DNA of 64,000 bases from Chlamydiota bacterium (GTDB taxonomy: Bacteria; Chlamydiota; Chlamydiia; Chlamydiales; JAAKFR01). The position numbers were made by a program, and so were the translations under genes. The notes beneath the pieces are model-generated. The model ran no database searches. It saw only the letters and a list, made by a program, of their open reading frames with translations, and had not been told where the DNA came from. The DNA lies in contig JAJFLY010000003.1 in the NCBI GenBank assembly GCA_021772455.1, positions 7,630 to 71,629 of the forward strand. Reading direction: 5' to 3'. Positions 32,011-42,944 of the stretch are shown in pieces (positions within the stretch are counted from its first letter, which is position 1; every line of letters starts with the position of its first letter).

Positions 32011-33773
32011 AACTTCCTTGCTGTTTCAATCAATTCATGGATCTCAGAGAGCGCTTTTTTAAATTCGTCGGTCTCAAAAGGAATCGAGTTCATAGTTTTG
32101 ATTTTACCTTGCAGTTGAAGGAAAAACTCACGCGCCCGATCGCGGCTGCTGAATTCAAAGGCTGTATTGAATATGCGATCGATGAGTTTAAAGAGTGGAA
32201 TTTGCCGGTTTAATGGACAGTAGGAATCTACTTTATCGAAAGCATTTTGCTGCAAATAACAAAAATCATACAGCTCAGCCTTGAGGTGGATGATCATGTC
32301 ATCGAGAGAGGTTCCTTCTTCTCCTACAACTTCCATCCGCTTGCCAATCTCATTTCCTTCGATAAGTATCCGCTCAGCCTTCATCACCATCTCGCCCCAC
32401 CCTGGAACCTCTTCTTCCAACTGTTTCGAAACATCACCTACATATTTTGACCATGAAATGAGGGTATCGACCGAGGGGTAGCGACGCGCATCAGAACGTG
32501 CTCTAGAAAGGCCGCAAAATGCGCCGACAACAGCAAGTGTTGCTTGCGTGACAGGCTCTTCAAAATTCCCCCCCGCAGGAGAGACAGCTCCGCAGATGGT
32601 AATCGACCCTTGCTTCTTATTTTTAAGAGAGACAACACCACCCCGTTCATAGAATGCCGCGATTCGAGAAGCCAAATAAGCCGGAAAAGCCTCTTCACCG
32701 GGAATTTCCTCCAACCGACCAGACATCTCGCGCAGTGCTTGTGCCCAGCGGGATGTAGAATCGGCGAGTAATAAGACATCAAGCCCCATTTGCCGGTAGT
32801 ACTCAGCAATTGTCACACCCATATAGATCGAAGATTCGCGGGCAGAGACCGGCATCGAAGAGGTGTTACAGATAATACATGTACGGGTAATAAGAGGTTC
32901 GTTGGTATGGGGATCGGTCAATTCAGGGAATTCGCGCAAAATTTCGACAACTTCCCCGGCTCGCTCCCCACATGCACATAAAACCACAAGGTCGACAGAC
33001 GAATATTTTGAAAGGTGGTGTTGTAAAACGGTTTTCCCAGCGCCAAAGGGCCCGGGAGTACAAAACGTTCCTCCCTTCATAATAGGGATCTGGGTGTCTA
33101 AAATGCGCAAACCTGTATCCATCATGCGAGTCGGCTTCACCTTTTCCCCTTGGAAAAGTCCCATTTTGATCGGCCATTTCTGCACCATAGTGAAGGTATG
33201 CTCCTCACCACGCTCATCACGACCGCGCGCCACAACTGTATCGACTGTGTACTTCCCCGAAGAGATAACCCAGGTCAGGGTGATTTTTCCAAAAAATGAG
33301 AAAGGAACCATAATGTGATGCTCAAAACGCCCCTCCATTGTGGTTCCGAGCGTATCGCCACGCTCAAGAGTGTCGCCAATTTTTGCCACGGTCAAATAAT
33401 CCCATTCCTGCTCGCGATCGATAGCAGGAACATAGACGCCGCGAGGAAGAAAGTATCCCGACTCCTCAGCAATCACTTCCAGTCTATTTTGTAGACCATC
33501 AAAAATCGTCTTTAAAAGACCGGGTCCAAGTTCAGCTTCGAGAAGGTCGCCAGTAAATTTGACCAGGCTATTGAGTTTCACACCACGCGTATCTTCATAA
33601 ACCTGAAGTTTAACTTCATTCCCGACAACCTCAATTACTTCAGCTTTAAGACCGGTTCCATCGACCTCTACAAAACCGACCTCACCTTGGCGCACATTGC
33701 CCTCAAATTCGACCTGCAAAAGATTTCCAAAAGCGCGGACAACCCTTCCTGTTGCTGATGTAGATAGTGTCAT
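32007..33773 (-). CDS. atpA: V-type ATPase catalytic subunit A
   Basis: 588 aa with Walker A GPFGAGKT, a Walker B region ([12 protein letters not shown]) and [11 protein letters not shown]. Confidence 0.95.
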
Positions 33774-34564
33774 TGTATTTCCTTCTGAATGGTATCGATT
33801 ACCTGTATTCCTTTTTGCACGTCAAGATCAAGCCATCTTTCGCATAAAATCAGACGCGCGACATAATTCAAGAGGCGGTTTAAGGTGAAAATGTCACCGC
33901 CCCACAACTCAACGATATGGTTAAACTGATAGGTGTAGACCGCTTTATGTAAATCTTGAGGAGAATCCCCATACTCTTCGAATATGGGCTTAAGCTCCTT
34001 GTATTCAAATGGGGGCTCATACACCTTTGCATCTTTTTGAGCGAGTATTTGCGCCACAATAGGATCTGTTGCATCCTCATATTGCAGTTCAACTGCGACA
34101 TCCCTTCCCAATTTTTTTGCCCGAAATCCCACCATTACAAGGCGCATTTCTCTCTGAAAATTATAAAAATCTTTCAAGAAGCCCTCTTGGTCTTCCATCT
34201 GATATTGAAAAAACAGACTCATTAAAAGAGGGAAATATTCTAAGCGGTCCTCATTAGAATGATACTTATTTAAATAATCCTGTAAAAAGAGCGGGAAATC
34301 CTCACCATTTGGCCACTGGAAATCCAAAAGAGCCTGCTCCATCTCATGACTGTTCAGATTTCCTCTCGGATCAAATGGCTCTTTCGCCCAAAAAGAGCGT
34401 AGATTTTCGAGATCAATGAAGCGCAAAAACCGCCACACACGCCTCTGATCAACATCCGTGAGATTGATACGCACAAGCTCCTTGAGTTCGGGAAAACCAA
34501 GACCTGGAACGTGCCCGATCTCCAAAGGAGGCAAAAGACTCGCTATGAAATAGTATTCAGTCAT
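33770..34564 (-). CDS. conserved V-ATPase-operon protein of unknown role (DUF2764-like, from memory)
   Basis: 264-aa helical protein between atpE and atpA. Its stop overlaps the atpA start (ATGA). A gene occupies the same slot in chlamydial V-ATPase operons, as I recall. Confidence 0.6.
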   Translation of the reverse strand: MTEYYFIASLLPPLEIGHVPGLGFPELKELVRINLTDVDQRRVWRFLRFIDLENLRSFWAKEPFDPRGNLNSHEMEQALLDFQWPNGEDFPLFLQDYLNKYHSNEDRLEYFPLLMSLFFQYQMEDQEGFLKDFYNFQREMRLVMVGFRAKKLGRDVAVELQYEDATDPIVAQILAQKDAKVYEPPFEYKELKPIFEEYGDSPQDLHKAVYTYQFNHIVELWGGDIFTLNRLLNYVARLILCERWLDLDVQKGIQVIDTIQKEIQ

Positions 34565-34573
34565 ATTTTTTTG

Positions 34574-35200
34574 TTACGATTGAAACAGGAGTTCTCGAAA
34601 ATCCTTGCGGATATAGCTTCCAAGAAGCTCTTTTAGAGCATCATCACTTAAATCAAGCGTAAGCTTACGATCAAGCAATTTCAGCTTTACTCCTCCAAAA
34701 AAATCCCCGACGGTAACCGATTTTTCGCTTAACTTATCGATAATTTCTTTAACGAGTATTGCATTAACCTTATCAGCAGGAATTTGCGCAGGAATTTGAG
34801 CTGAAAAATCAGCACTAACGCCCTCTTTTTCAACAGCATCCACCAAAACAGCAATCAGTTTTGCCCCCACTTTTGGATCGGCTGTATTATTTTTTAGCCA
34901 TTCATTTAGCTCGCCATTGAAAAGCTTGTTTTCAATATCTTGCTTTAAAGCTTCGATTCCCTGGCGACACGCCTGCTTCATAGAGCTTTGAAAGAGCTCC
35001 TTTTCCTTTTCCATTTTGGCTTTTGCGTTATTGAGGGTTTCCTCAGCTTTGGCCTCGGCATCACGGATAATCTGATGCGCTTCTTGCCCCGCTACTTCAA
35101 TGATCTTTTGCGCCTCTTCTTTTGCAGGCAACAGCGTTTCATCTTTGAGAATATCGCAGATTTTTTTAATTTTATCTTTGCCTGTTTCTAAGTTCTCCAT
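34574..35200 (-). CDS. atpE: V-type ATPase subunit E
   Basis: 208 aa with a long N-terminal charged helix (KEEAQKIIEVAGQEAHQIIRDAEAKAEETLNNAKAKMEKEKE) and a globular C-terminus. It is the first gene of the cluster. Confidence 0.8.
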   Translation of the reverse strand: MENLETGKDKIKKICDILKDETLLPAKEEAQKIIEVAGQEAHQIIRDAEAKAEETLNNAKAKMEKEKELFQSSMKQACRQGIEALKQDIENKLFNGELNEWLKNNTADPKVGAKLIAVLVDAVEKEGVSADFSAQIPAQIPADKVNAILVKEIIDKLSEKSVTVGDFFGGVKLKLLDRKLTLDLSDDALKELLGSYIRKDFRELLFQS

Positions 35201-35311
35201 TATCCTTAGCCTTTACTGTATTAGATCTATCTTGAGCTCACCTTATCAGCGAGGGAGTAGATTGGCAAACAAAACGATTAAATTCAAGGCCCAACTGCGG
35301 AGGTTAGAAAG

Positions 35312-35788
35312 ATGCGTCTTTTTTTCTGTTTTATGTTTCTACTTTGTGCCACTGCGGTTCATGCAGACACACTTTCTGTTGTTCCTCCAAAAGGATGGGA
35401 AAGGATCCGCGATCCCGAGCAACTCCCTCAAAAAGTATCCGTTATTTATATCGGATCGGGAAAAAGTCCCTTCTCACCCTCGATAAACCTTGCTACTGAA
35501 GAAACAACTCTCCCTGTAAATGAGTACATGACTCTTGCCAAATCCTATCATATTGCTCAAGCAAACACTCATTGTAAACAACTTGGAACTATCGATACAA
35601 ATGCCGGAAAAGCAAACCTGCTTCAAATCGACCGTCCTACCCAATGGGGTCCAGTGCGCTTTATACAAGGTGTTATTGTACAAGACGAGAAAGCCTTTGT
35701 GGTCACAGCAACGTGTCTCCAAGAAGAATTTGCTTCTCTATCCGCACAGATATTCAAATCGATTCAATCTTTCACAATCTCTCAGTAG
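35312..35788 (+). CDS. secreted hypothetical protein
   Basis: It has the signal peptide MRLFFCFMFLLCATAVHA, then VVPPKGWERI, a P.GW start reminiscent of PsbP/DUF1795-like folds (weak). Confidence 0.55.
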   Translation: MRLFFCFMFLLCATAVHADTLSVVPPKGWERIRDPEQLPQKVSVIYIGSGKSPFSPSINLATEETTLPVNEYMTLAKSYHIAQANTHCKQLGTIDTNAGKANLLQIDRPTQWGPVRFIQGVIVQDEKAFVVTATCLQEEFASLSAQIFKSIQSFTISQ

Positions 35789-35854: not shown

Positions 35855-36118
35855 ATGAAAAAATATATCTCGCTATTTCTACTGCTCATGATGGCTTTAG
35901 CAACATCTATTCATGCAAACCATCCTGTTAATGCCTGCCCGGATTCATGTGAATCCCAAACGTGCTACGATCCATGCGATCCATGTATCCCGTGCGCTCC
36001 AGCTTGTGGCACACGCTGCGGAGTCAATTGGGTCCGTATTGGAGTTGCAACAGGAGTTGTCGTCGCAGTTGGTGTGGCGATTGCAGTTAGTCGTGACTCA
36101 TCACATTCCCATAATTAA
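35855..36118 (+). CDS. small Cys-rich membrane-anchored protein, array member 1
   Basis: The signal is MKKYISLFLLLMMALATSIHA. The core has 8 Cys, including CYDPCDPCIPCAPACGTRCG. The C-terminal hydrophobic helix is IGVATGVVVAVGVAIAV and the tail is SRDSSHSHN. A GAGG RBS is present. Confidence 0.7.
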   Translation: MKKYISLFLLLMMALATSIHANHPVNACPDSCESQTCYDPCDPCIPCAPACGTRCGVNWVRIGVATGVVVAVGVAIAVSRDSSHSHN

Positions 36119-36138
36119 TTAATAGCAGGAGCCTTGCT

Positions 36139-36429
36139 TTGAATAAGTTCGTTGCCATCTTAGCCATTCTTGTTATCTCCTCTGGCATGACCCTTTCGGC
36201 AAACTCCTGCCATTCTGACCCAGGTGATTGTTCGCCTTGTTGTGAACAACCCTGTGCAACCGATTGTTGCTTCCCTTGTGATCCATGTGATATTGCGGCT
36301 CCTGTTTGTGGAACTAACTGTGGTTTGACAGTATGTTCCATCGCAGTTACAATTGCTGCGATCGTTGGTGTGGCTGCGATCATCATTGCAAGTCCAAATT
36401 CTAGCTCTGTCCACCTCCACAATCCGTAA
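36139..36429 (+). CDS. small Cys-rich membrane-anchored protein, array member 2
   Basis: It has a TTG start 6-10 nt after AGGAG. The signal is MNKFVAILAILVISSGMTLSA. The core has 12 Cys, including CFPCDPCDIAAPVCGTNCG. The helix is SIAVTIAAIVGVAAIIIA and the tail is SPNSSSVHLHNP. Confidence 0.65.
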   Translation: MNKFVAILAILVISSGMTLSANSCHSDPGDCSPCCEQPCATDCCFPCDPCDIAAPVCGTNCGLTVCSIAVTIAAIVGVAAIIIASPNSSSVHLHNP

Positions 36430-36504
36430 TCAAAAAAAACCGATTGCGTTCAAAATGAAAGGTTTGATATCTATATCTCCAACAAAAAAACAGAAAGGTT
36501 CATC

Positions 36505-36819
36505 ATGAAAAGTCTCGTTGCTTTATTATGTGCTATCTCACTTGGAATGCCTCTTATCGGAGCAGATAATCCTAACCTAAATTATCAAAACTACAATCAT
36601 GGATATTGTCCAGAGTGCAATTGTACCCCATGTGGATGTGGAGAGCCAGCACCGGCATGTGCAGCACCCGCTTGTGCCCCATGTGATCCGTGCGCACCTG
36701 TTTGTGGAGCTGAGTGTGGCATTTCTCTTTGTGCCATAGGTGTTGGGATCGCCGCGGCTGCAGCAGCAGCCGTTCTCATCATCGCATCAGGAAGTGGTTC
36801 ACAACACCATCACAACTAG
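36505..36819 (+). CDS. small Cys-rich membrane-anchored protein, array member 3
   Basis: The signal is MKSLVALLCAISLGMPLIGA. It has NYQNYNHGYCPECNCTPCGC, then CAPCDPCAPVCGAECG. The helix is AIGVGIAAAAAAAVLIIA and the tail is SGSGSQHHHN. Confidence 0.7.
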   Translation: MKSLVALLCAISLGMPLIGADNPNLNYQNYNHGYCPECNCTPCGCGEPAPACAAPACAPCDPCAPVCGAECGISLCAIGVGIAAAAAAAVLIIASGSGSQHHHN

Positions 36820-36832
36820 AACTAATAGTATT

Positions 36833-37210
36833 ATGAAAACACTTATTACTCTCCTATCTGTATTTTTCCTATCGTGCAGCTCAATACTTACGGCTGCAAG
36901 CAATACATTTTTGGATTACCAAAATTACAACCATGGGTACTGCCCCGATTGTAATTGCAGTCCCTGTAAATGCAGCGGAGGAGGATGTCAAGCTCCAGCT
37001 CCAGATACTGCAAAAAATCCTAAAGATCCAGTTAATCCACCAAGCGACTGTCCAAAACCCAACCCGTGTTCCCCTCCTGCAACAACTGCCTGCACTCAGT
37101 GTGGTTTAAATGTAATCTATGTTGGAATTGGAATGGTTGTTCTTGCCGCAGCCGCTGTAATCATTGTCGGCTCTGACAATGGAAGTGTCCATGGCCATTC
37201 TGCTCCATGA
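36833..37210 (+). CDS. small Cys-rich membrane-anchored protein, array member 4 (with Pro-rich insert)
   Basis: Start at the ATG at 36833 (MKTLITLLSVFFLSCSSILTAA), not the tracked 36740, which overlaps member 3. It has YQNYNHGYCPDCNCSPCKC, a Pro-rich spacer and ACTQCG. The helix is YVGIGMVVLAAAAVIIVG and the tail is SDNGSVHGHSAP. Confidence 0.7.
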   Translation: MKTLITLLSVFFLSCSSILTAASNTFLDYQNYNHGYCPDCNCSPCKCSGGGCQAPAPDTAKNPKDPVNPPSDCPKPNPCSPPATTACTQCGLNVIYVGIGMVVLAAAAVIIVGSDNGSVHGHSAP

Positions 37211-37716
37211 GGACGCCTCTTCTTGGACTTATCATGCTCCTTCCAGCCTGCTCATCTCATAAAGAGTGGAATGCTAGTCAGGTCGTTTCACGCTCGAAGC
37301 CGTTCAATTCAGCCCAACTTCAATATACATCCGATAATGAGCTGCAAGGAGTGGGAGTAGAGCTCTTAAAAGGGGCTTTTGGAACTCTTGGCTATCTAAA
37401 TGTGAGCGCACGTCAGATCCCCACCCTACCAGAAGCGCCTGAGATGTCGATTGTCGTGCTTGTAATTGAAGGGGAGAAATTTCCCTACCATGCGAATCGA
37501 ATGGAAGGTGGACAAAAGCTCCTTCTCCCTTCAGAGGCAACAGAAAAGTTGATCTCAACGCTTGAGAGCAACCAAGCTGTCTCCATCCACCTCGATGGTT
37601 TCATGACCAAGCTAGAGCCCTCGGCTAGTCGCTTCTGGAACATCTTTAAGAGGTTCAACGCGAAAGGCGACGGAAAACTTCTCTCCCCCGATATTCAAGT
37701 CGATGACAGAGCTTAA
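37207..37716 (+). CDS. putative lipoprotein translationally coupled to the Cys-rich array
   Basis: MRTPLLGLIMLLPACSSH is a signal plus a lipobox-like LPAC. Its ATG overlaps the stop of array member 4 (ATGA at 37207-37210). Confidence 0.55.
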   Translation: MRTPLLGLIMLLPACSSHKEWNASQVVSRSKPFNSAQLQYTSDNELQGVGVELLKGAFGTLGYLNVSARQIPTLPEAPEMSIVVLVIEGEKFPYHANRMEGGQKLLLPSEATEKLISTLESNQAVSIHLDGFMTKLEPSASRFWNIFKRFNAKGDGKLLSPDIQVDDRA

Positions 37717-37995
37717 ACGGGTCAATAGAATATTAAAAGGGACCTTTACATGGTGCGTCCCGACATCAATCGCAATCGATGTTCCCCCTAAAATCTCCTC
37801 TGAAGCATGAATCTGGCAACAAAGAGATTCAAACTGACGCAAATGTCTGAGCAGTGTCTCATCATCAAAGGCATACTTTTTCCCACATTTAGGACACGGG
37901 ACGACGTTGTCAAAACTTTCTCGATCGAGGACAGAAAAAAGGATGGGCGCCTCACACCCCTGGCAATGAATCTGAAGTTTATGTCCAATCTGCAT
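37612..37995 (-). CDS. hypothetical zinc-ribbon protein
   Basis: Start taken at MQIGHKLQIHCQGCEAP...CPKCGKKY (CxxC...CxxC). The tracked ORF starts at the TTG at 38061. Its 3' end overlaps the convergent lipoprotein gene by 105 nt. Confidence 0.45.
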   Translation of the reverse strand: MQIGHKLQIHCQGCEAPILFSVLDRESFDNVVPCPKCGKKYAFDDETLLRHLRQFESLCCQIHASEEILGGTSIAIDVGTHHVKVPFNILLTRLSSVIDLNIGGEKFSVAFRVEPLKDVPEATSRGL

Positions 37996-38130
37996 AGCGC
38001 TCTCACATAGTTTAAAATTCGTGCCGAGATTACCAAAGTCGTAGAAAAAAACCCAAGTCAAATTTTTTATTTAGTTTATTAATAACATTCAACTCGTTAT
38101 AATATTATCTTAATTATTATTGGGGGAATA

Positions 38131-38607
38131 ATGAATAAAATAGCAACTTTATTGCTTTTATTAATGCCGTTTACAGCACAAGCAAAATATAATTTTAACG
38201 AAACACTCTTCATTCCAATCGAGCAAACAAGCATTTGGCAGAAATCCAAGCAGTCTGCGACAGAAGAGGGCACCTCAATCACGCGGTTTGTTCAAGGAGC
38301 AGCAAATTCGGAGCTCTTAACAATCCAATTTAAAGACCGCGAGCTTGTTCAAGGAAGGACGGCAGAAGAGGCGATGAAGTATGAGCAAAGTCTCAGTCCC
38401 CTTGCCGATTGGGTCGTCATTAAGAGCCTTCCAAACGATATCATCTATGAGCGGACATTTCCTAGCGGAGAGCATGAACTTGTTCGCATGGTTATGACCA
38501 AGAAGGGACTTCATCGAGCGGCATTCCTAAAACGCGGCAGCCCTATCGCAACAAACCAGCGTTCCGATTGGCTTGAGCGCCTTTCCGGTGGCGTAATAGG
38601 GCGCTAG
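38131..38607 (+). CDS. secreted hypothetical protein
   Basis: It has the signal peptide MNKIATLLLLLMPFTAQA and a GGGGA RBS. An AT-rich promoter-like region with TATAAT lies upstream. Confidence 0.55.
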   Translation: MNKIATLLLLLMPFTAQAKYNFNETLFIPIEQTSIWQKSKQSATEEGTSITRFVQGAANSELLTIQFKDRELVQGRTAEEAMKYEQSLSPLADWVVIKSLPNDIIYERTFPSGEHELVRMVMTKKGLHRAAFLKRGSPIATNQRSDWLERLSGGVIGR

Positions 38608-38672
38608 AGTATTGTTTACAAAAGAAAATGTGTGCTATATGTGAAAAAAACACTAAAAAATGAGTTACACCT

Positions 38673-39644
38673 ATGGCATGCAAATTAGATCAACTGAAAA
38701 AAATGACCACCGTTGTCTGCGATACTGGCGACATCAATAGCATTAAAAAGTACGAACCAACCGATGCAACCACCAACCCCTCTCTGATTTTTCAGGCAGC
38801 TTCTGATCCACAATATCAATATTTGATTGACGACGCTGTGAAATGGGGAATGAGCAAAACATCAAATGAATCGCAGATGCTCCACTGCATCATGGACAAA
38901 CTCTTTGTAAATTTTGGCATCGAGATCCTCAAGATTGTTCCGGGGCGTGTTTCCACAGAAGTTGATGCTCGCCTCTCCTTTGATACACATGGAAGTATTC
39001 AAAAGGGAACCCAGCTAATCGGCTTATATGAAGCTGCCGGGATTGACCGCACACGCGTCTTGATCAAACTCGCCTCCACATGGGAAGGAATTCAAGCTGC
39101 TAAAGTCCTCGAAAAGGAAGGGATCCATTGTAATATGACCTTGATGTTCAGCTTAGAACAAGCTGTTGCCGCAGCTGAAGTGGGAGCAACGCTTATCTCG
39201 CCATTTGTCGGACGCATTTTTGACTGGTTTAAGGCAAGTGAGGGTATCGAAAGCTACCCACCTGAGAAGGATCCAGGTGTCCTATCGGTGCAGCAGATCT
39301 ACAACTACTATAAGAAATTTGGCCATGAGACTCAGATCATGGGCGCATCGTTTAGAAATGTCGAAGAGATCTTGCAGCTTGCTGGATGTGATCTCTTGAC
39401 AATCGCCCCTAAATTCCTAGAAACCTTGCACAATGACGAGGGGACCGTCGATCAAAAGTTGAGCGCTGAAAAGTCGAAAAGCTCTAGTATTCAAAAGCTC
39501 GAGCTTGACGAATCAACATTCCGTTTTGGCGTGAACGACAACCAGATGGCAACCGAGAAGTTGGCTGATGGAATCCGGCGTTTCGCTGCCGATACCCGTA
39601 AGCTAGAGAAGCACATTCTAGAGCGCGTCTCAGCTGTTGCTTAG
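38673..39644 (+). CDS. tal: transaldolase
   Basis: 323 aa with DATTNPSL, RVSTEVDARLS, the Schiff-base Lys context LIKLASTWEG, and ISPFVGRIFDW. The stop codon TAG (39642-39644) abuts the IS end. Confidence 0.95.
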   Translation: MACKLDQLKKMTTVVCDTGDINSIKKYEPTDATTNPSLIFQAASDPQYQYLIDDAVKWGMSKTSNESQMLHCIMDKLFVNFGIEILKIVPGRVSTEVDARLSFDTHGSIQKGTQLIGLYEAAGIDRTRVLIKLASTWEGIQAAKVLEKEGIHCNMTLMFSLEQAVAAAEVGATLISPFVGRIFDWFKASEGIESYPPEKDPGVLSVQQIYNYYKKFGHETQIMGASFRNVEEILQLAGCDLLTIAPKFLETLHNDEGTVDQKLSAEKSKSSSIQKLELDESTFRFGVNDNQMATEKLADGIRRFAADTRKLEKHILERVSAVA

Positions 39645-40814: not shown

Positions 40815-41553
40815 TTTGTGCCCTCTGTGCAAGTTGTGTAAACAAGGATTCATGCTCCTTGAAATTTTTAATAGGTGCCTCAGCATAAAGGACAAATAAG
40901 CGCCCTTTGTGCTCAAGACATTCAAAGAAAAGCCCGCGCTTTCCAGTAGCAAAACCATGCGCCGTAGCGCGAGTCCGCTCTCCCGAGGAGGTGTAGATCG
41001 CTCTGTTGTCAGATTGATAGAGACACGATGGCTCACCATCGAGAGTTTCAAGATGCCATGCAATCAACTCCTCGGAGCCACACCGATCAAGCTCGAAGAC
41101 GCGTACATCAAGATAGAAAGGGAATCCAATCACAGTCTCACCCAAATAGAGGCGTTTATACACTTGAAAAGGAACCGGAGGCTTAATCGTATCCAGAAGA
41201 GGTTCTGAAATGCATAAGACGCTGTATAACTCTTGGGGCAAGGTAAAAGGAATTTGGGCTTGCAAAGCAGTCAGCGTTTGAATCAAAGATGTCTCGATTT
41301 GCTCATGGGTCAATTCAGAGTGTAAAGAGTCGCAAATCTCGCTCAACAATGAGAGGTCACGCATCATCTCAAGATTTGGACGCATCACATTTGGCTGCGT
41401 ATCGAGCCAAGGGTGGGAAAGAATCGGCGCTGGGACGATCGGCCTAACCTTTTCAGTCACCTCAGATGCACCTTTTTTCGCCGGCAATAAACGCAAAGCG
41501 ACAAAAATAGCTAAGCACACAACAAATAAAATCCATGAAAACCGCTTCTTCAC
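40807..41553 (-). CDS. membrane-anchored hypothetical protein
   Basis: Its GTG start overlaps the phoH2 stop (GTGA). The N-terminal anchor is FSWILFVVCLAIFVALRLL. There is no recognised domain. Its stop overlaps the carbonic anhydrase start by 8 nt. Confidence 0.55.
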   Translation of the reverse strand: MKKRFSWILFVVCLAIFVALRLLPAKKGASEVTEKVRPIVPAPILSHPWLDTQPNVMRPNLEMMRDLSLLSEICDSLHSELTHEQIETSLIQTLTALQAQIPFTLPQELYSVLCISEPLLDTIKPPVPFQVYKRLYLGETVIGFPFYLDVRVFELDRCGSEELIAWHLETLDGEPSCLYQSDNRAIYTSSGERTRATAHGFATGKRGLFFECLEHKGRLFVLYAEAPIKNFKEHESLFTQLAQRAQNE

Positions 41554-42944
41554 ATCACCTCTGCAGCTAAAGCCGCCAATTCTGAACGTTCTGTCTTCTC
41601 CATGAAAACATGACCAAAAATTTTCTGCTGCTTAAAACGACCCACAATATACGTTAACCCGTTTGAGTCTTTATCTAAATAGGGATTGTCGATCTGCGTC
41701 GGATCCCCTGTCAGGACCACTTTTGTATCCTTTCCCGCCCGCGAGATCACCGTCTTCACCTCGTGCGGCGTCAAGTTCTGCGCCTCGTCGATAATGATGT
41801 ACATCTTTGGCAAGGTCCGCCCTCGAATATATGTAACCGCCTCCATCTCAAGCTTATTTCCTTCGGTCACCCAACGAAGCGTCTCATTTGGCTCGCTTCC
41901 CGTCGACTCGCACAAATACTCAAGATTATCGTAAATAGGCTGCATCCAATGAAGAAGCTTTTCCTCTTTTAGCCCCGGCAAATACCCAATATCACGACCA
42001 AGCGGCATGATCGGCCGGCTCACCAAAATACGTGAATAAACAGCCTCATCAAAGACCTTCCGTAAACCCGCCGCCAACGCCAACATCGTCTTCCCCGTCC
42101 CAGCCGGGCCAATCAACGTCACCAACTTCACATCATCGCGCAAAAGGAGATCCAAAGCACACCTTTGCTCTATATTCAGAGGATTAATTCCCCAAATATT
42201 TGCCGGAAGATTGATCAAAGAGCCCACTTTCTTCGTTTTCGGATCATATTTACCTACAGCAGAAGAGTGCTCGGCAGAGGTCATCAAACAATATTCATTT
42301 GGAAAAAACTCCTTATCAGGAGCTGGAACCGCGATTTGGCCATCTTTATAAAATGTATCAATGTCATGCTTCGGCAGCTCGATCTTGCGGTACCCCTTAT
42401 AAAGGCTGTCATATGAAAACTTCTGATTTTCATAATCCTCCGCTTCCAGCCCCATCGCTTCGGCCTTCACGCGCATCGCCAAATCTTTGGTCACAAAAAC
42501 GACATTTTCCCCCTTCTCAAAAAGGAAGTAGGCCGCCATTAAGATCCGATAGCTGATTGAGCTCAAAGATAGAGAGAAGTTTGGACTATAATTGGTCTTG
42601 ATTTCCAATTGAATGCGAATGCGCGTCCCATTTTCAAGGACAACCCCCTGATGCAAATCCCCTTTTCCAACGTTTTTCAGGGAGTCGAAATAAGCGAGAA
42701 CGGCCCGCGCATTTTTTGACATCTCATCGCGATACCGTTTTTTCGTGTCGAACTCCTCTAAAACCGCGAGAGGGACGACCACATCGTTGTCCCCAAAAGC
42801 AGTGAGAGCATCTGGGTCGTGCAATAAGACATTCGTATCGAGGACAAAGGTTTTTCTATCCACCAAGCTATACCTCCCTTTATGGGGAATGTAGCGGCTT
42901 AGTTTGGAAGAAGCAATAAAATCTTTTTTAGTCAAAATTAGCAC
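41550..42944 (-). CDS. phoH: PIN-domain / PhoH-like ATPase fusion (PhoH2 type)
   Basis: The N-terminus is PIN-like (FVLDTNVLLHDP...VVVPLAVLEELD-type). The C-terminal PhoH ATPase has Walker A GPAGTGKT and Walker B IIIDEAQN. Confidence 0.85.
   Translation of the reverse strand: MLILTKKDFIASSKLSRYIPHKGRYSLVDRKTFVLDTNVLLHDPDALTAFGDNDVVVPLAVLEEFDTKKRYRDEMSKNARAVLAYFDSLKNVGKGDLHQGVVLENGTRIRIQLEIKTNYSPNFSLSLSSISYRILMAAYFLFEKGENVVFVTKDLAMRVKAEAMGLEAEDYENQKFSYDSLYKGYRKIELPKHDIDTFYKDGQIAVPAPDKEFFPNEYCLMTSAEHSSAVGKYDPKTKKVGSLINLPANIWGINPLNIEQRCALDLLLRDDVKLVTLIGPAGTGKTMLALAAGLRKVFDEAVYSRILVSRPIMPLGRDIGYLPGLKEEKLLHWMQPIYDNLEYLCESTGSEPNETLRWVTEGNKLEMEAVTYIRGRTLPKMYIIIDEAQNLTPHEVKTVISRAGKDTKVVLTGDPTQIDNPYLDKDSNGLTYIVGRFKQQKIFGHVFMEKTERSELAALAAEVM

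Follow-up and report, generated by a model that had tools for sequence, protein, structure and literature searches.

Results

The locus

We analysed a stretch of 64,000 nucleotides (the window) from contig JAJFLY010000003.1 of a Chlamydiota bacterium (assembly GCA_021772455.1, positions 7,630 to 71,629), in which four small Cys-rich genes, members of what we propose below to be a new protein family, stand in tandem directly upstream of a lipoprotein gene. In both the open reading frame (ORF) listing and the raw sequence, window positions 35855-37716 hold these five genes consecutively on the + strand (Table 1). A preliminary description of the window had proposed that the four Cys-rich proteins share one architecture, with which the sequence agrees: each begins with a signal peptide, continues as a Cys/Pro-rich region and ends in a C-terminal helix with a Ser/His tail. 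The motif strings and tails quoted there, as well as the ATGA overlap at 37207-37210, are all present. Every ORF was found, although member 4 starts at 36833, rather than at the implied 36834, and the range of 8-12 Cys given for the proteins fits members 1, 2 and 4 (8, 12 and 11, Cys of signal peptide and helix included), but not member 3, which has 13. An alignment of the four contains 14 invariant columns, distributed over Cys-rich core, helix and tail. Shine-Dalgarno sequences lie 5' of the starts; the TTG start of member 2 is 8 nucleotides 3' of AGGAG, and its orthologue in L012 has Met at the same position (surveyed loci and individual proteins carry L and P numbers). There is no further family member elsewhere in the 64-kb window, nor did Rfam give an RNA family anywhere in it.

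Table 1. Features of the locus, with positions in the window
Feature	Position	Strand	Remarks
Upstream element, TTGGCA-N10-TTAAATTCAAG	35262..35288	+	23 nucleotides 5' of the first gene of the operon (up158)
up158, 158 residues, secreted	35312..35788	+	first gene of the operon; signal peptide MRLFFCFMFLLCATAVHA
Member 1, 87 residues	35855..36118	+	short subtype without N-terminal head; motif CDPCIPCAPACGTRCG, helix, tail SRDSSHSHN
Member 2, 96 residues, TTG start	36139..36429	+	short subtype; motif CDPCDIAAPVCGTNCG, helix, tail SPNSSSVHLHNP
Member 3, 104 residues	36505..36819	+	canonical long subtype; head YQNYNHGYCPECNCTPCGC at 36583-36639, Cys/Pro spacer, CDPCAPVCGAECGIS, helix residues 75-94 (36727-36786), tail SGSGSQHHHN
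Member 4, 125 residues	36833..37210	+	'last-position' subtype; head YQNYNHGYCPDCNCSPCKC at 36917-36973, Pro-rich spacer, KPNPCSPPATTACTQCG, helix, tail SDNGSVHGHSAP; ATGA overlap of its stop with the start of the lipoprotein gene
Head peptide sequence			SNTFLDYQNYNHGYCPDCNCSPCKC
Lipoprotein, 169 residues	37207..37716	+	lipobox LLPAC, Cys15; ATGA overlap with member 4
Zn-ribbon protein, 127 residues	37612..37995	-	convergent; real start MQIGHKL; constant syntenic neighbour
dn158, second secreted protein of 158 residues	38131..38607	+	neighbour in some loci only; no relation to up158

Coding status and paralogue subtypes

A family hidden Markov model (HMM) was built from 62 homologues from outside the window, the window proteins being left out, with 800 composition-preserving shuffles as the control. 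Members 1 to 4 score 53.7, 57.3, 125.8 and 141.6 bits with this model, compared with a shuffle maximum of 8.5 bits. Ratios of nonsynonymous to synonymous substitution rates (dN/dS) were calculated by the Nei-Gojobori method for the closely related loci L005 and L007, for which dS is ~1-1.8; the values are 0.14 for array gene 1, 0.05 for gene 2, 0.04 for gene 3 (a Cys-free paralogue), 0.03 for gene 4 (of the last-position subtype) and 0.11 for the lipoprotein gene. The array genes are real, and purifying selection acts on them. The array is also old and native, since its GC content equals that of the flanks and the window copies share no more at the DNA level than a single 15-nucleotide repeat, made up of the codons for PCDPC.

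Reciprocal-best orthologues were found for all four members. Those of members 1 and 2 are in nearer relatives: member 1 has orthologues at position 1 in L002 and L013, with the subtype feature CAPACGTxCG(V/L)NW, and member 2 has orthologues in L012, L005 and L010, with the common tail SP.SS.VH.HNP. Members 3 and 4 each have orthologues in at least 10 loci, the former being characterized by CDPCAPVCGTECGIS and the tail SGSGSS..H.HN, and the latter by KPNPCxPPATTxCTQCG and the tail SNNG..H.HSAP. Wherever a member 4 orthologue occurs, it is the final array gene before the lipoprotein gene, as in L001, L002, L004, L005, L007, L008, L012 and L013. The KPNPCxPPATTxCTQCG sequence marks a conserved, specialized subtype, with a dN/dS of 0.03, and not the decayed copy of the motif for which it had been taken. 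Judged by these orthologies, the four window genes are old and distinct paralogue types, whose order is conserved across species, and not recent duplicates. Stepwise tandem duplication, as originally proposed, thus holds insofar as the genes are paralogues, but the orthologues across species and the mere 15-nucleotide repeat place the duplications in the distant past.

Architecture of the family

Statistics on the architecture were compiled from 164 non-redundant members. The universal element is a juxtamembrane motif, (C/Y)DP(C/S)AP(V/I)(C/A)GTx(C/A)G(I/V/L)(S/N/T), or DP.AP..GT..G in its short form, which is followed by a helix rich in Ala, Gly, Val and Ile (mean Kyte-Doolittle hydropathy 2.67) and by a tail with a median length of 10 residues, composed of 29% Ser, 16% His, 14% Gly and 11% Asn. 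His is present in 92% of the tails and HxH in 78 of the 164; 135 tails (82%) have neither Lys nor Arg. This core of motif, helix and His tail is retained even in members that have no Cys. Paralogues with 0-1 Cys occur in the arrays of L005 (6291-6668), L007 (6307-6624), L012 (449-706), L022 (6462-6719), L023 (6545-6859) and L028 (1530-1805), where they retain P.APV.GT..G, the helix and an SSNG..H.H tail; P0125 and P0138 are further examples that retain motif, helix and tail. The window array has no Cys-free or single-Cys member, and the Cys core described as common to all four proteins is indeed present in each of them, but it does not extend to the family as a whole. Because Cys-free paralogues hold motif, helix and tail at a dN/dS of 0.04, Cys is not the universal constraint on the family. 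Cys number is even in 88 members and odd in 76; with no bias towards even numbers, the Cys residues need not all pair inside one chain.

Ahead of the constant C terminus the proteins vary greatly, with sizes of 68-553 residues; in the minimal members, P0138 and P0136, the ectodomain amounts to just ~10-20 residues. The largest protein (L024 3727-5394) has 553 residues, 60 Cys, internal repeats of ~40 residues and the end HHHHHH, and another, of at least 303 residues, is rich in Cys, Asn and Pro (L028 2-910). Since both giants share the C-terminal motif, helix and tail, the ectodomain can evidently expand enormously.

In long members the signal peptide is followed immediately by a head, (S/D)(N/D)TF(L/I)D-YQNYNHGYCPxCxCxPCxC. 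Conservation reaches at least 89% at 13 of the 19 head positions, and four Cys and one His are exactly spaced in >93% of the 94 head-bearing members. The spacer that follows is 25-134 residues long (median 52), with 24.7% Pro and 14.4% Cys. An AlphaFold2 model of member 3, calculated from a 66-sequence alignment, is confident for two helices alone, that of the signal peptide (residues 2-14) and a C-terminal one (residues 75-94), the latter with predicted local distance difference test (pLDDT) values of 80-92; the ectodomain, at pLDDT ~50, has no confident fold. The ends of the signal peptides are of AxA type (SIHA/N, TLSA/N, LIG/A and LTA/A); orthologues of member 4 do not share its 'LSC' (LAFSS in that of L012).

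A near-identical version of the mini-motif of the head, GHCPxCDCSPCEC, is present three times in the unrelated P0127 (L029 4001-6520), a protein of 839 residues with no signal peptide, encoded on a 12-kb Joint Genome Institute metagenome contig along with same-strand genes of no assigned function and a TnsA-like gene. From its sequence, GHCPxCDCSPCEC may be a portable Cys or metal knuckle.

Distribution of the family

A profile search of 5.8 billion clusters returned 65 proteins, all unnamed or 'hypothetical' and with at most 5 sequences per cluster; where an organism was named, it was a metagenome-assembled genome (MAG) of Chlamydiales, Chlamydiae or Chlamydiia. An exhaustive HMMER scan matched 87 of 1.84 billion representatives, two of them spuriously (P0113 and P0127), which leaves ~85 clusters; the 20 matches that we looked up comprise 19 singleton clusters and one with three members, all from metagenomes or MAGs. 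The preliminary description had suggested surveying genomes for the pattern, and a pattern scan of 185,579 species, each represented by one genome, gave 21 loci, all in uncultured chlamydial MAGs. Chlamydiae Clade IV, the sister of Chlamydiaceae (PMC11249467), includes two of the 21 carriers, K940_chlam_9 and KR126_chlam_2. No cultured chlamydia is among the matches of either the pattern scan or the exhaustive scan, and the evidence for absence from cultured chlamydiae is strong for the head-bearing type and reasonable for the remaining types.

Comparison with described families was negative throughout. Searched against Pfam, the four window proteins have no match at E<=1, 66 family members have none at E<=0.1 and isolated ectodomains none at E<=10. 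NCBIfam, searched with the 66 members at E<=1, gave scattered noise alone and no CTERM model, and was equally silent for the four window proteins and the ectodomains; a PDB profile search with the Cys-rich family gave no match. Literature searches found neither the motif strings nor, among papers on chlamydial MAGs, an account of proteins of this kind. The expectation of the preliminary description, that the architecture would match no characterized family, was borne out in Pfam, NCBIfam and PDB.

Operon structure and synteny

Gene order was read in L001, L002 and L026 and in the 21 genome loci of the pattern scan. The array lies nearly always between the V-type ATPase operon and the transaldolase gene (tal), in the order V-ATPase operon (-), up158 (+), 1-4 Cys-rich genes (+), lipoprotein gene (+), Zn-ribbon gene (-), dn158 (+, some loci), HSP20 (some loci) and transaldolase (+). 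In every sufficiently long locus up158 is present in the same position and orientation; it overlaps the first Cys-rich gene by 4 nucleotides in L002, L011 and L026, and the last Cys-rich gene overlaps or abuts the lipoprotein gene. Of the 22 distinct loci in the first survey, 19 have a lipoprotein homologue 3' of the array, as do L026 and L028. The last of these has another downstream flank (DUF5752, TreT, amylase), yet keeps array and lipoprotein gene together. As overlaps join the genes, and as L028 retains array and lipoprotein despite its changed flank, the functional unit is up158-(Cys)n-lipoprotein. The Zn-ribbon gene and dn158 are taken as syntenic neighbours whose relevance is uncertain. 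The coupling of the array to the lipoprotein was recognized in the preliminary description; the module is, however, larger than described there, with the upstream up158 forming part of the operon. The ~12 kb around the array encode neither a Dsb enzyme nor a protease, sortase-like enzyme or metal transporter.

A bipartite element, TTkdCA-N10/11-TwAAAwTTCAAG, precedes the up158 start by 9-27 nucleotides in at least 10 loci of different species (L002, L008, L011, L013, L015, L016, L017, L018, L019 and L023, besides the window), and is probably a promoter or an operator/regulator site of the operon. As a sigma-70 -35/-10 pair its spacing is unsuitable, and a sigma-70 scan did not outperform shuffles; nor is there a convincing fit to a sigma-28, sigma-54 or sigma-66 promoter.

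The lipobox Cys (Cys15) of the lipoprotein is invariant in 20 of 20 homologues, with Ala, Gly or Ser at position -1 in 19 and Cys in one. Gly101, Leu107 and Leu119 are also invariant in the family, and the motif MEGGQ+LLLP is conserved. None of the 20 homologues has Asp at +2. By the rule known from E. coli, a lipoprotein without Asp at this position goes to the outer membrane and, because the +2 Asp is absent, the predicted location of this lipoprotein is probably the outer membrane. AlphaFold2 gives a beta-rich fold with two helices (pLDDT 83.5), for which Foldseek found no match in the PDB at E<=0.001; the best fold match, 8z5n_B, a chain of the Vibrio flagellar LPHT ring (E 0.08, TM 0.51), was deemed uninformative. 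Sequence searches of Pfam, NCBIfam and PDB with the lipoprotein gave no match either. The window lipoprotein has a unique C-terminal extension of ~17-19 residues (pLDDT <50), hence a 105-nucleotide overlap (37612-37716) with the Zn-ribbon gene; in relatives of the window, L002 among them, the two genes do not overlap.

The up158 protein has 19 invariant residues across 13 species. Its family gives weak, sub-threshold matches to PsbP_2 and LpqN, no PDB relative in a profile search, and no similarity to dn158 or to the lipoprotein.

The Zn-ribbon protein is strongly conserved across 20 loci (phmmer E 1e-33 to 1e-72), with weak Zn_ribbon matches; its gene starts at 37995 (MQIGHKL), rather than at the TTG at 38061, and is not beside the array in L028. 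The dn158 gene is present in 8 distinct loci of the first survey and in L026, and its product has no Pfam or NCBIfam match. The HSP20 gene, located at 8067-8519 in L001, 7971-8402 in L002 and 8293-8745 in L026, is missing from the window (38607-38673). We take the interval from the V-ATPase operon to transaldolase (window 33770-35200 (-) to 38673-39644 (+)) to correspond to CT310-CT313 of C. trachomatis, with up158 and the Zn-ribbon gene presumably in the positions of CT311 and CT312; if so, the Cys array and the lipoprotein gene are missing from the pathogens' locus. CT311 has been discussed in the literature as a signal-peptide protein. Further away, the window encodes a PIN+PhoH fusion protein at 41550-42944 (-) and, at 45160-46326 (-), a protein with a eukaryote-type U-box (E3 ubiquitin ligase) domain, likely a host-directed effector.

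Discussion

Instead of a thick wall of peptidoglycan, chlamydiae use Cys-rich proteins cross-linked by disulfides to stabilize their infectious form, and OmcA, OmcB and MOMP of the pathogenic Chlamydiaceae are the source of nearly all knowledge of this envelope cross-linking. The three proteins together constitute the disulfide cross-linked chlamydial outer membrane complex (PMC2811131). OmcA (CrpA, the 9-kDa Chlamydiaceae lipoprotein; PF03503, Chlam_OMP3) is the nearest functional analogue of the proteins described here, being likewise small (~70-120 residues when mature), exported, very rich in Cys and confined to Chlamydiae, with 'DPCAP'-like strings and a plausible shared role in a disulfide cross-linked envelope. 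Membership of the OmcA family nevertheless fails on profile, lipid anchor and omcB partner. PF03503 is silent for the 66 members and for the isolated ectodomains, i.e. there is no detectable homology; OmcA has an N-terminal lipid anchor, whereas the present proteins have a signal peptidase I-type signal peptide and a C-terminal helix with a His tail; and the partner of OmcA is omcB (PF03504), in contrast to up158, an unrelated lipoprotein of 150-170 residues and 1-4 ordered paralogue subtypes here, with no OmcB-like gene in the conserved neighbourhood. The proteins are thus not plain OmcA, as the preliminary description had recognized.

Since membership fails both for OmcA and for the sorting domains considered below, and since TonB-like tethers and metallothioneins are analogies only, the Cys-rich genes are, on present profile comparisons, a new lineage-restricted protein family of uncultured Chlamydiales. 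The earlier description of the module as uncharacterized, of envelope type and coupled to a lipoprotein is supported, and the module is restricted to Chlamydiales. The operon probably forms part of the cell envelope.

Among the three functions that the preliminary description had put forward, i.e. envelope cross-linking, metal binding and C-terminal sorting, the first, in a modified 'tether' form, best fits the anatomy. Each small protein would be exported by its cleavable Sec signal peptide and anchored in the inner membrane by the C-terminal Ala/Gly/Val/Ile helix, with the Ser/His tail of ~10 residues in the cytoplasm and the remainder in the periplasm; from a cleavable signal peptide and one C-terminal hydrophobic helix, a bitopic topology is to be expected, the N terminus outside and the C terminus inside. 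The paralogues would pack through the invariant core of juxtamembrane motif, small-residue helix and tail into a hetero-oligomeric membrane assembly, as suggested by the strict conservation of the helix-proximal core, by the small-residue helices and by the co-retention of ordered paralogues, Cys-free ones included. Long paralogues would extend the unstructured Pro/Cys-rich spacer into the periplasm, with the near-invariant head at its far end, and the Cys-rich stalks and heads would form disulfides with each other, with the co-translated lipoprotein or with other envelope proteins, such that the bonded tethers stiffen or couple the inner and outer membranes. That the spacer is unstructured and variable in length, that the distal head is near-invariant and that one subtype is translationally coupled to a lipoprotein of probable outer-membrane location all point to such a tether. 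In a phylum whose envelope is made rigid by disulfide cross-links (PMC2811131), the most economical reading, which we favour tentatively and as a possibility well short of established, is a disulfide-bonded tether that runs from the inner membrane through the periplasm to the outer membrane and assembles with the lipoprotein. Its role would parallel that of the OmcA/OmcB cross-linked envelope of Chlamydia, though with unrelated components.

By analogy, TonB (and, functionally, also Braun's lipoprotein Lpp) combines an inner-membrane helix anchor, a variable Pro-rich spacer and a conserved distal module in the coupling of membranes. The polarity of the present family is opposite, with a C-terminal anchor and an N-terminal head; the head is a 19-residue Cys/Tyr/Asn motif, rather than a folded domain, the spacer also contains 14% Cys, and there is no sequence relationship. 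A more elaborate and rather doubtful version of the proposal is a trans-envelope tether of a kind not seen before, with a stalk of adjustable length, in which the head would lock, by disulfide or metal, onto the outer-membrane lipoprotein. It would replace the role of OmcA/OmcB, or of Lpp-peptidoglycan links, in many non-Chlamydiaceae chlamydiae, and would make the coupling of inner and outer membranes redox-switchable during the developmental cycle.

Several observations weigh against a disulfide-bonded tether. The strong constraint on Cys-free paralogues means that cross-linking cannot serve every subunit. Three of 22 loci (L017, L019 and L022) lack the lipoprotein, whose fold offers no functional clue. 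The inner-membrane location is a prediction, given that the tail lacks stop-transfer positive charges, and the exact CPxC...PCxC spacing of the head, with its His, resembles a specific knot or metal site rather than a general surface for cross-linking. All carriers, moreover, are uncultured MAGs or metagenome contigs.

The features of the head lead to another, less likely but serious, explanation, namely that the proteins are membrane-tethered metal binders, with the head HGYCPxCxCxPCxC and the juxtamembrane CX2CX3CX3C binding Zn, Cu or another metal in the periplasm and the His tail binding metal in the cytoplasm, for buffering, sensing or hand-over in the manner of metallothioneins. The exact spacing of the four Cys and the His in >93% of the 94 heads is consistent with this proposal, as is the occurrence in the head of CPxC, a classic metal-knuckle signature. 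With 10-17% Cys, and with CxC and CxxC spacings conserved alongside a His, the family resembles metallothioneins and Cys knuckles; HxH in 78 of 164 tails, and HHHHHH at the end of one, the absence of an even-number Cys bias and the threefold GHCPxCDCSPCEC of P0127, suggestive of a portable Cys mini-module, fit the same reading. However, no member matches a metallothionein, HMA or other metal-binding family, even when the ectodomains are searched on their own. The proteins are exported and membrane-anchored and their head is rich in Tyr, other aromatics and Asn, all unlike metallothioneins; the head is wholly missing from the short members; Cys-free paralogues are equally conserved; and no metal transporter or regulator is present in the conserved neighbourhood.

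The fact that the universal core is motif, helix and tail, not the ectodomain, raises the improbable alternative that the proteins are small accessory subunits of another membrane machine, such as the adjacent V-type ATPase, with helix and tail docking at the membrane ring and the periplasmic parts secondary. Ectodomains of ~10-20 residues, as in P0138 and P0136, would suit such a role, as would the tight packing that an Ala/Gly-rich helix allows, and the operon is divergent from, and adjacent to, the first V-ATPase gene wherever the upstream side is visible. The family would then resemble Voa1, Ac45 and PRR, the single-pass signal-peptide proteins of eukaryotic V-ATPases. The adjacency, though, belongs to a broader V-ATPase...tal gene order, so that it has little functional weight, and a copy number that varies from 1 to 4 is a further point against a subunit role. 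Chlamydiae in general encode a V-type ATPase, and the pattern and exhaustive scans found the family in uncultured lineages only.

Very improbable is a C-terminal sorting signal of the PEP-CTERM (exosortase), GlyGly-CTERM (rhombosortase), MYXO-CTERM or CGP-CTERM type, which an unseen sortase-like enzyme would cleave, the Cys-rich part then being attached to the envelope or to lipid. The likeness is in layout: a signal-peptide protein with a short motif containing Cys and Gly, a hydrophobic helix and a short C-terminal tail, in which the motif is conserved above most of the remaining protein, behind sequences that range over 68-553 residues. Known signals, however, bear a basic cluster, whereas 82% of the tails here have no Lys or Arg, and none of the NCBIfam sorting-domain models matched the 66 members. 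The 21 loci have one array each, with 1-4 low-complexity members, as opposed to signals dispersed through the genome on diverse cargo; cleavage of P0138 and P0136, which are little beyond the 'signal', would leave a cargo of ~10-20 residues; and neither the operon, its conserved flanks nor the surrounding ~12 kb contains a candidate protease or sortase. This third function of the preliminary description is abandoned on the lack of basic cluster, diverse cargo, dispersal and HMM match. That the ORFs are fast-decaying junk or a low-complexity artefact of Cys/Pro-rich translation, as their low complexity, the mirror ORFs on the opposite strand and the failure of gene callers to find several members might suggest, has a negligible chance of being true and is refuted by dN/dS of 0.03-0.14 at dS >=1, by orthologues in at least 21 species, by HMM scores set against shuffles, which rule out a composition effect, and by the Shine-Dalgarno sequences at starts and conserved gene overlaps.

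The results show that a broad range of uncultured chlamydiae, Clade IV included, has a second set of small Cys-rich proteins of envelope type, unrelated to those of the pathogenic Chlamydiaceae. As a small Cys-rich chlamydial envelope protein the family is a variant, not a categorically new system, and it can serve as a clean marker of its lineage. Both the 19-residue head and the core of motif, helix and His tail are compact, well defined and directly testable. Should the proteins be metal binders or machine subunits instead, they would still make up a new bacterial family of single-pass membrane proteins. As tethers or cross-linkers, they would constitute an alternative solution to envelope rigidity and its redox control in chlamydiae.

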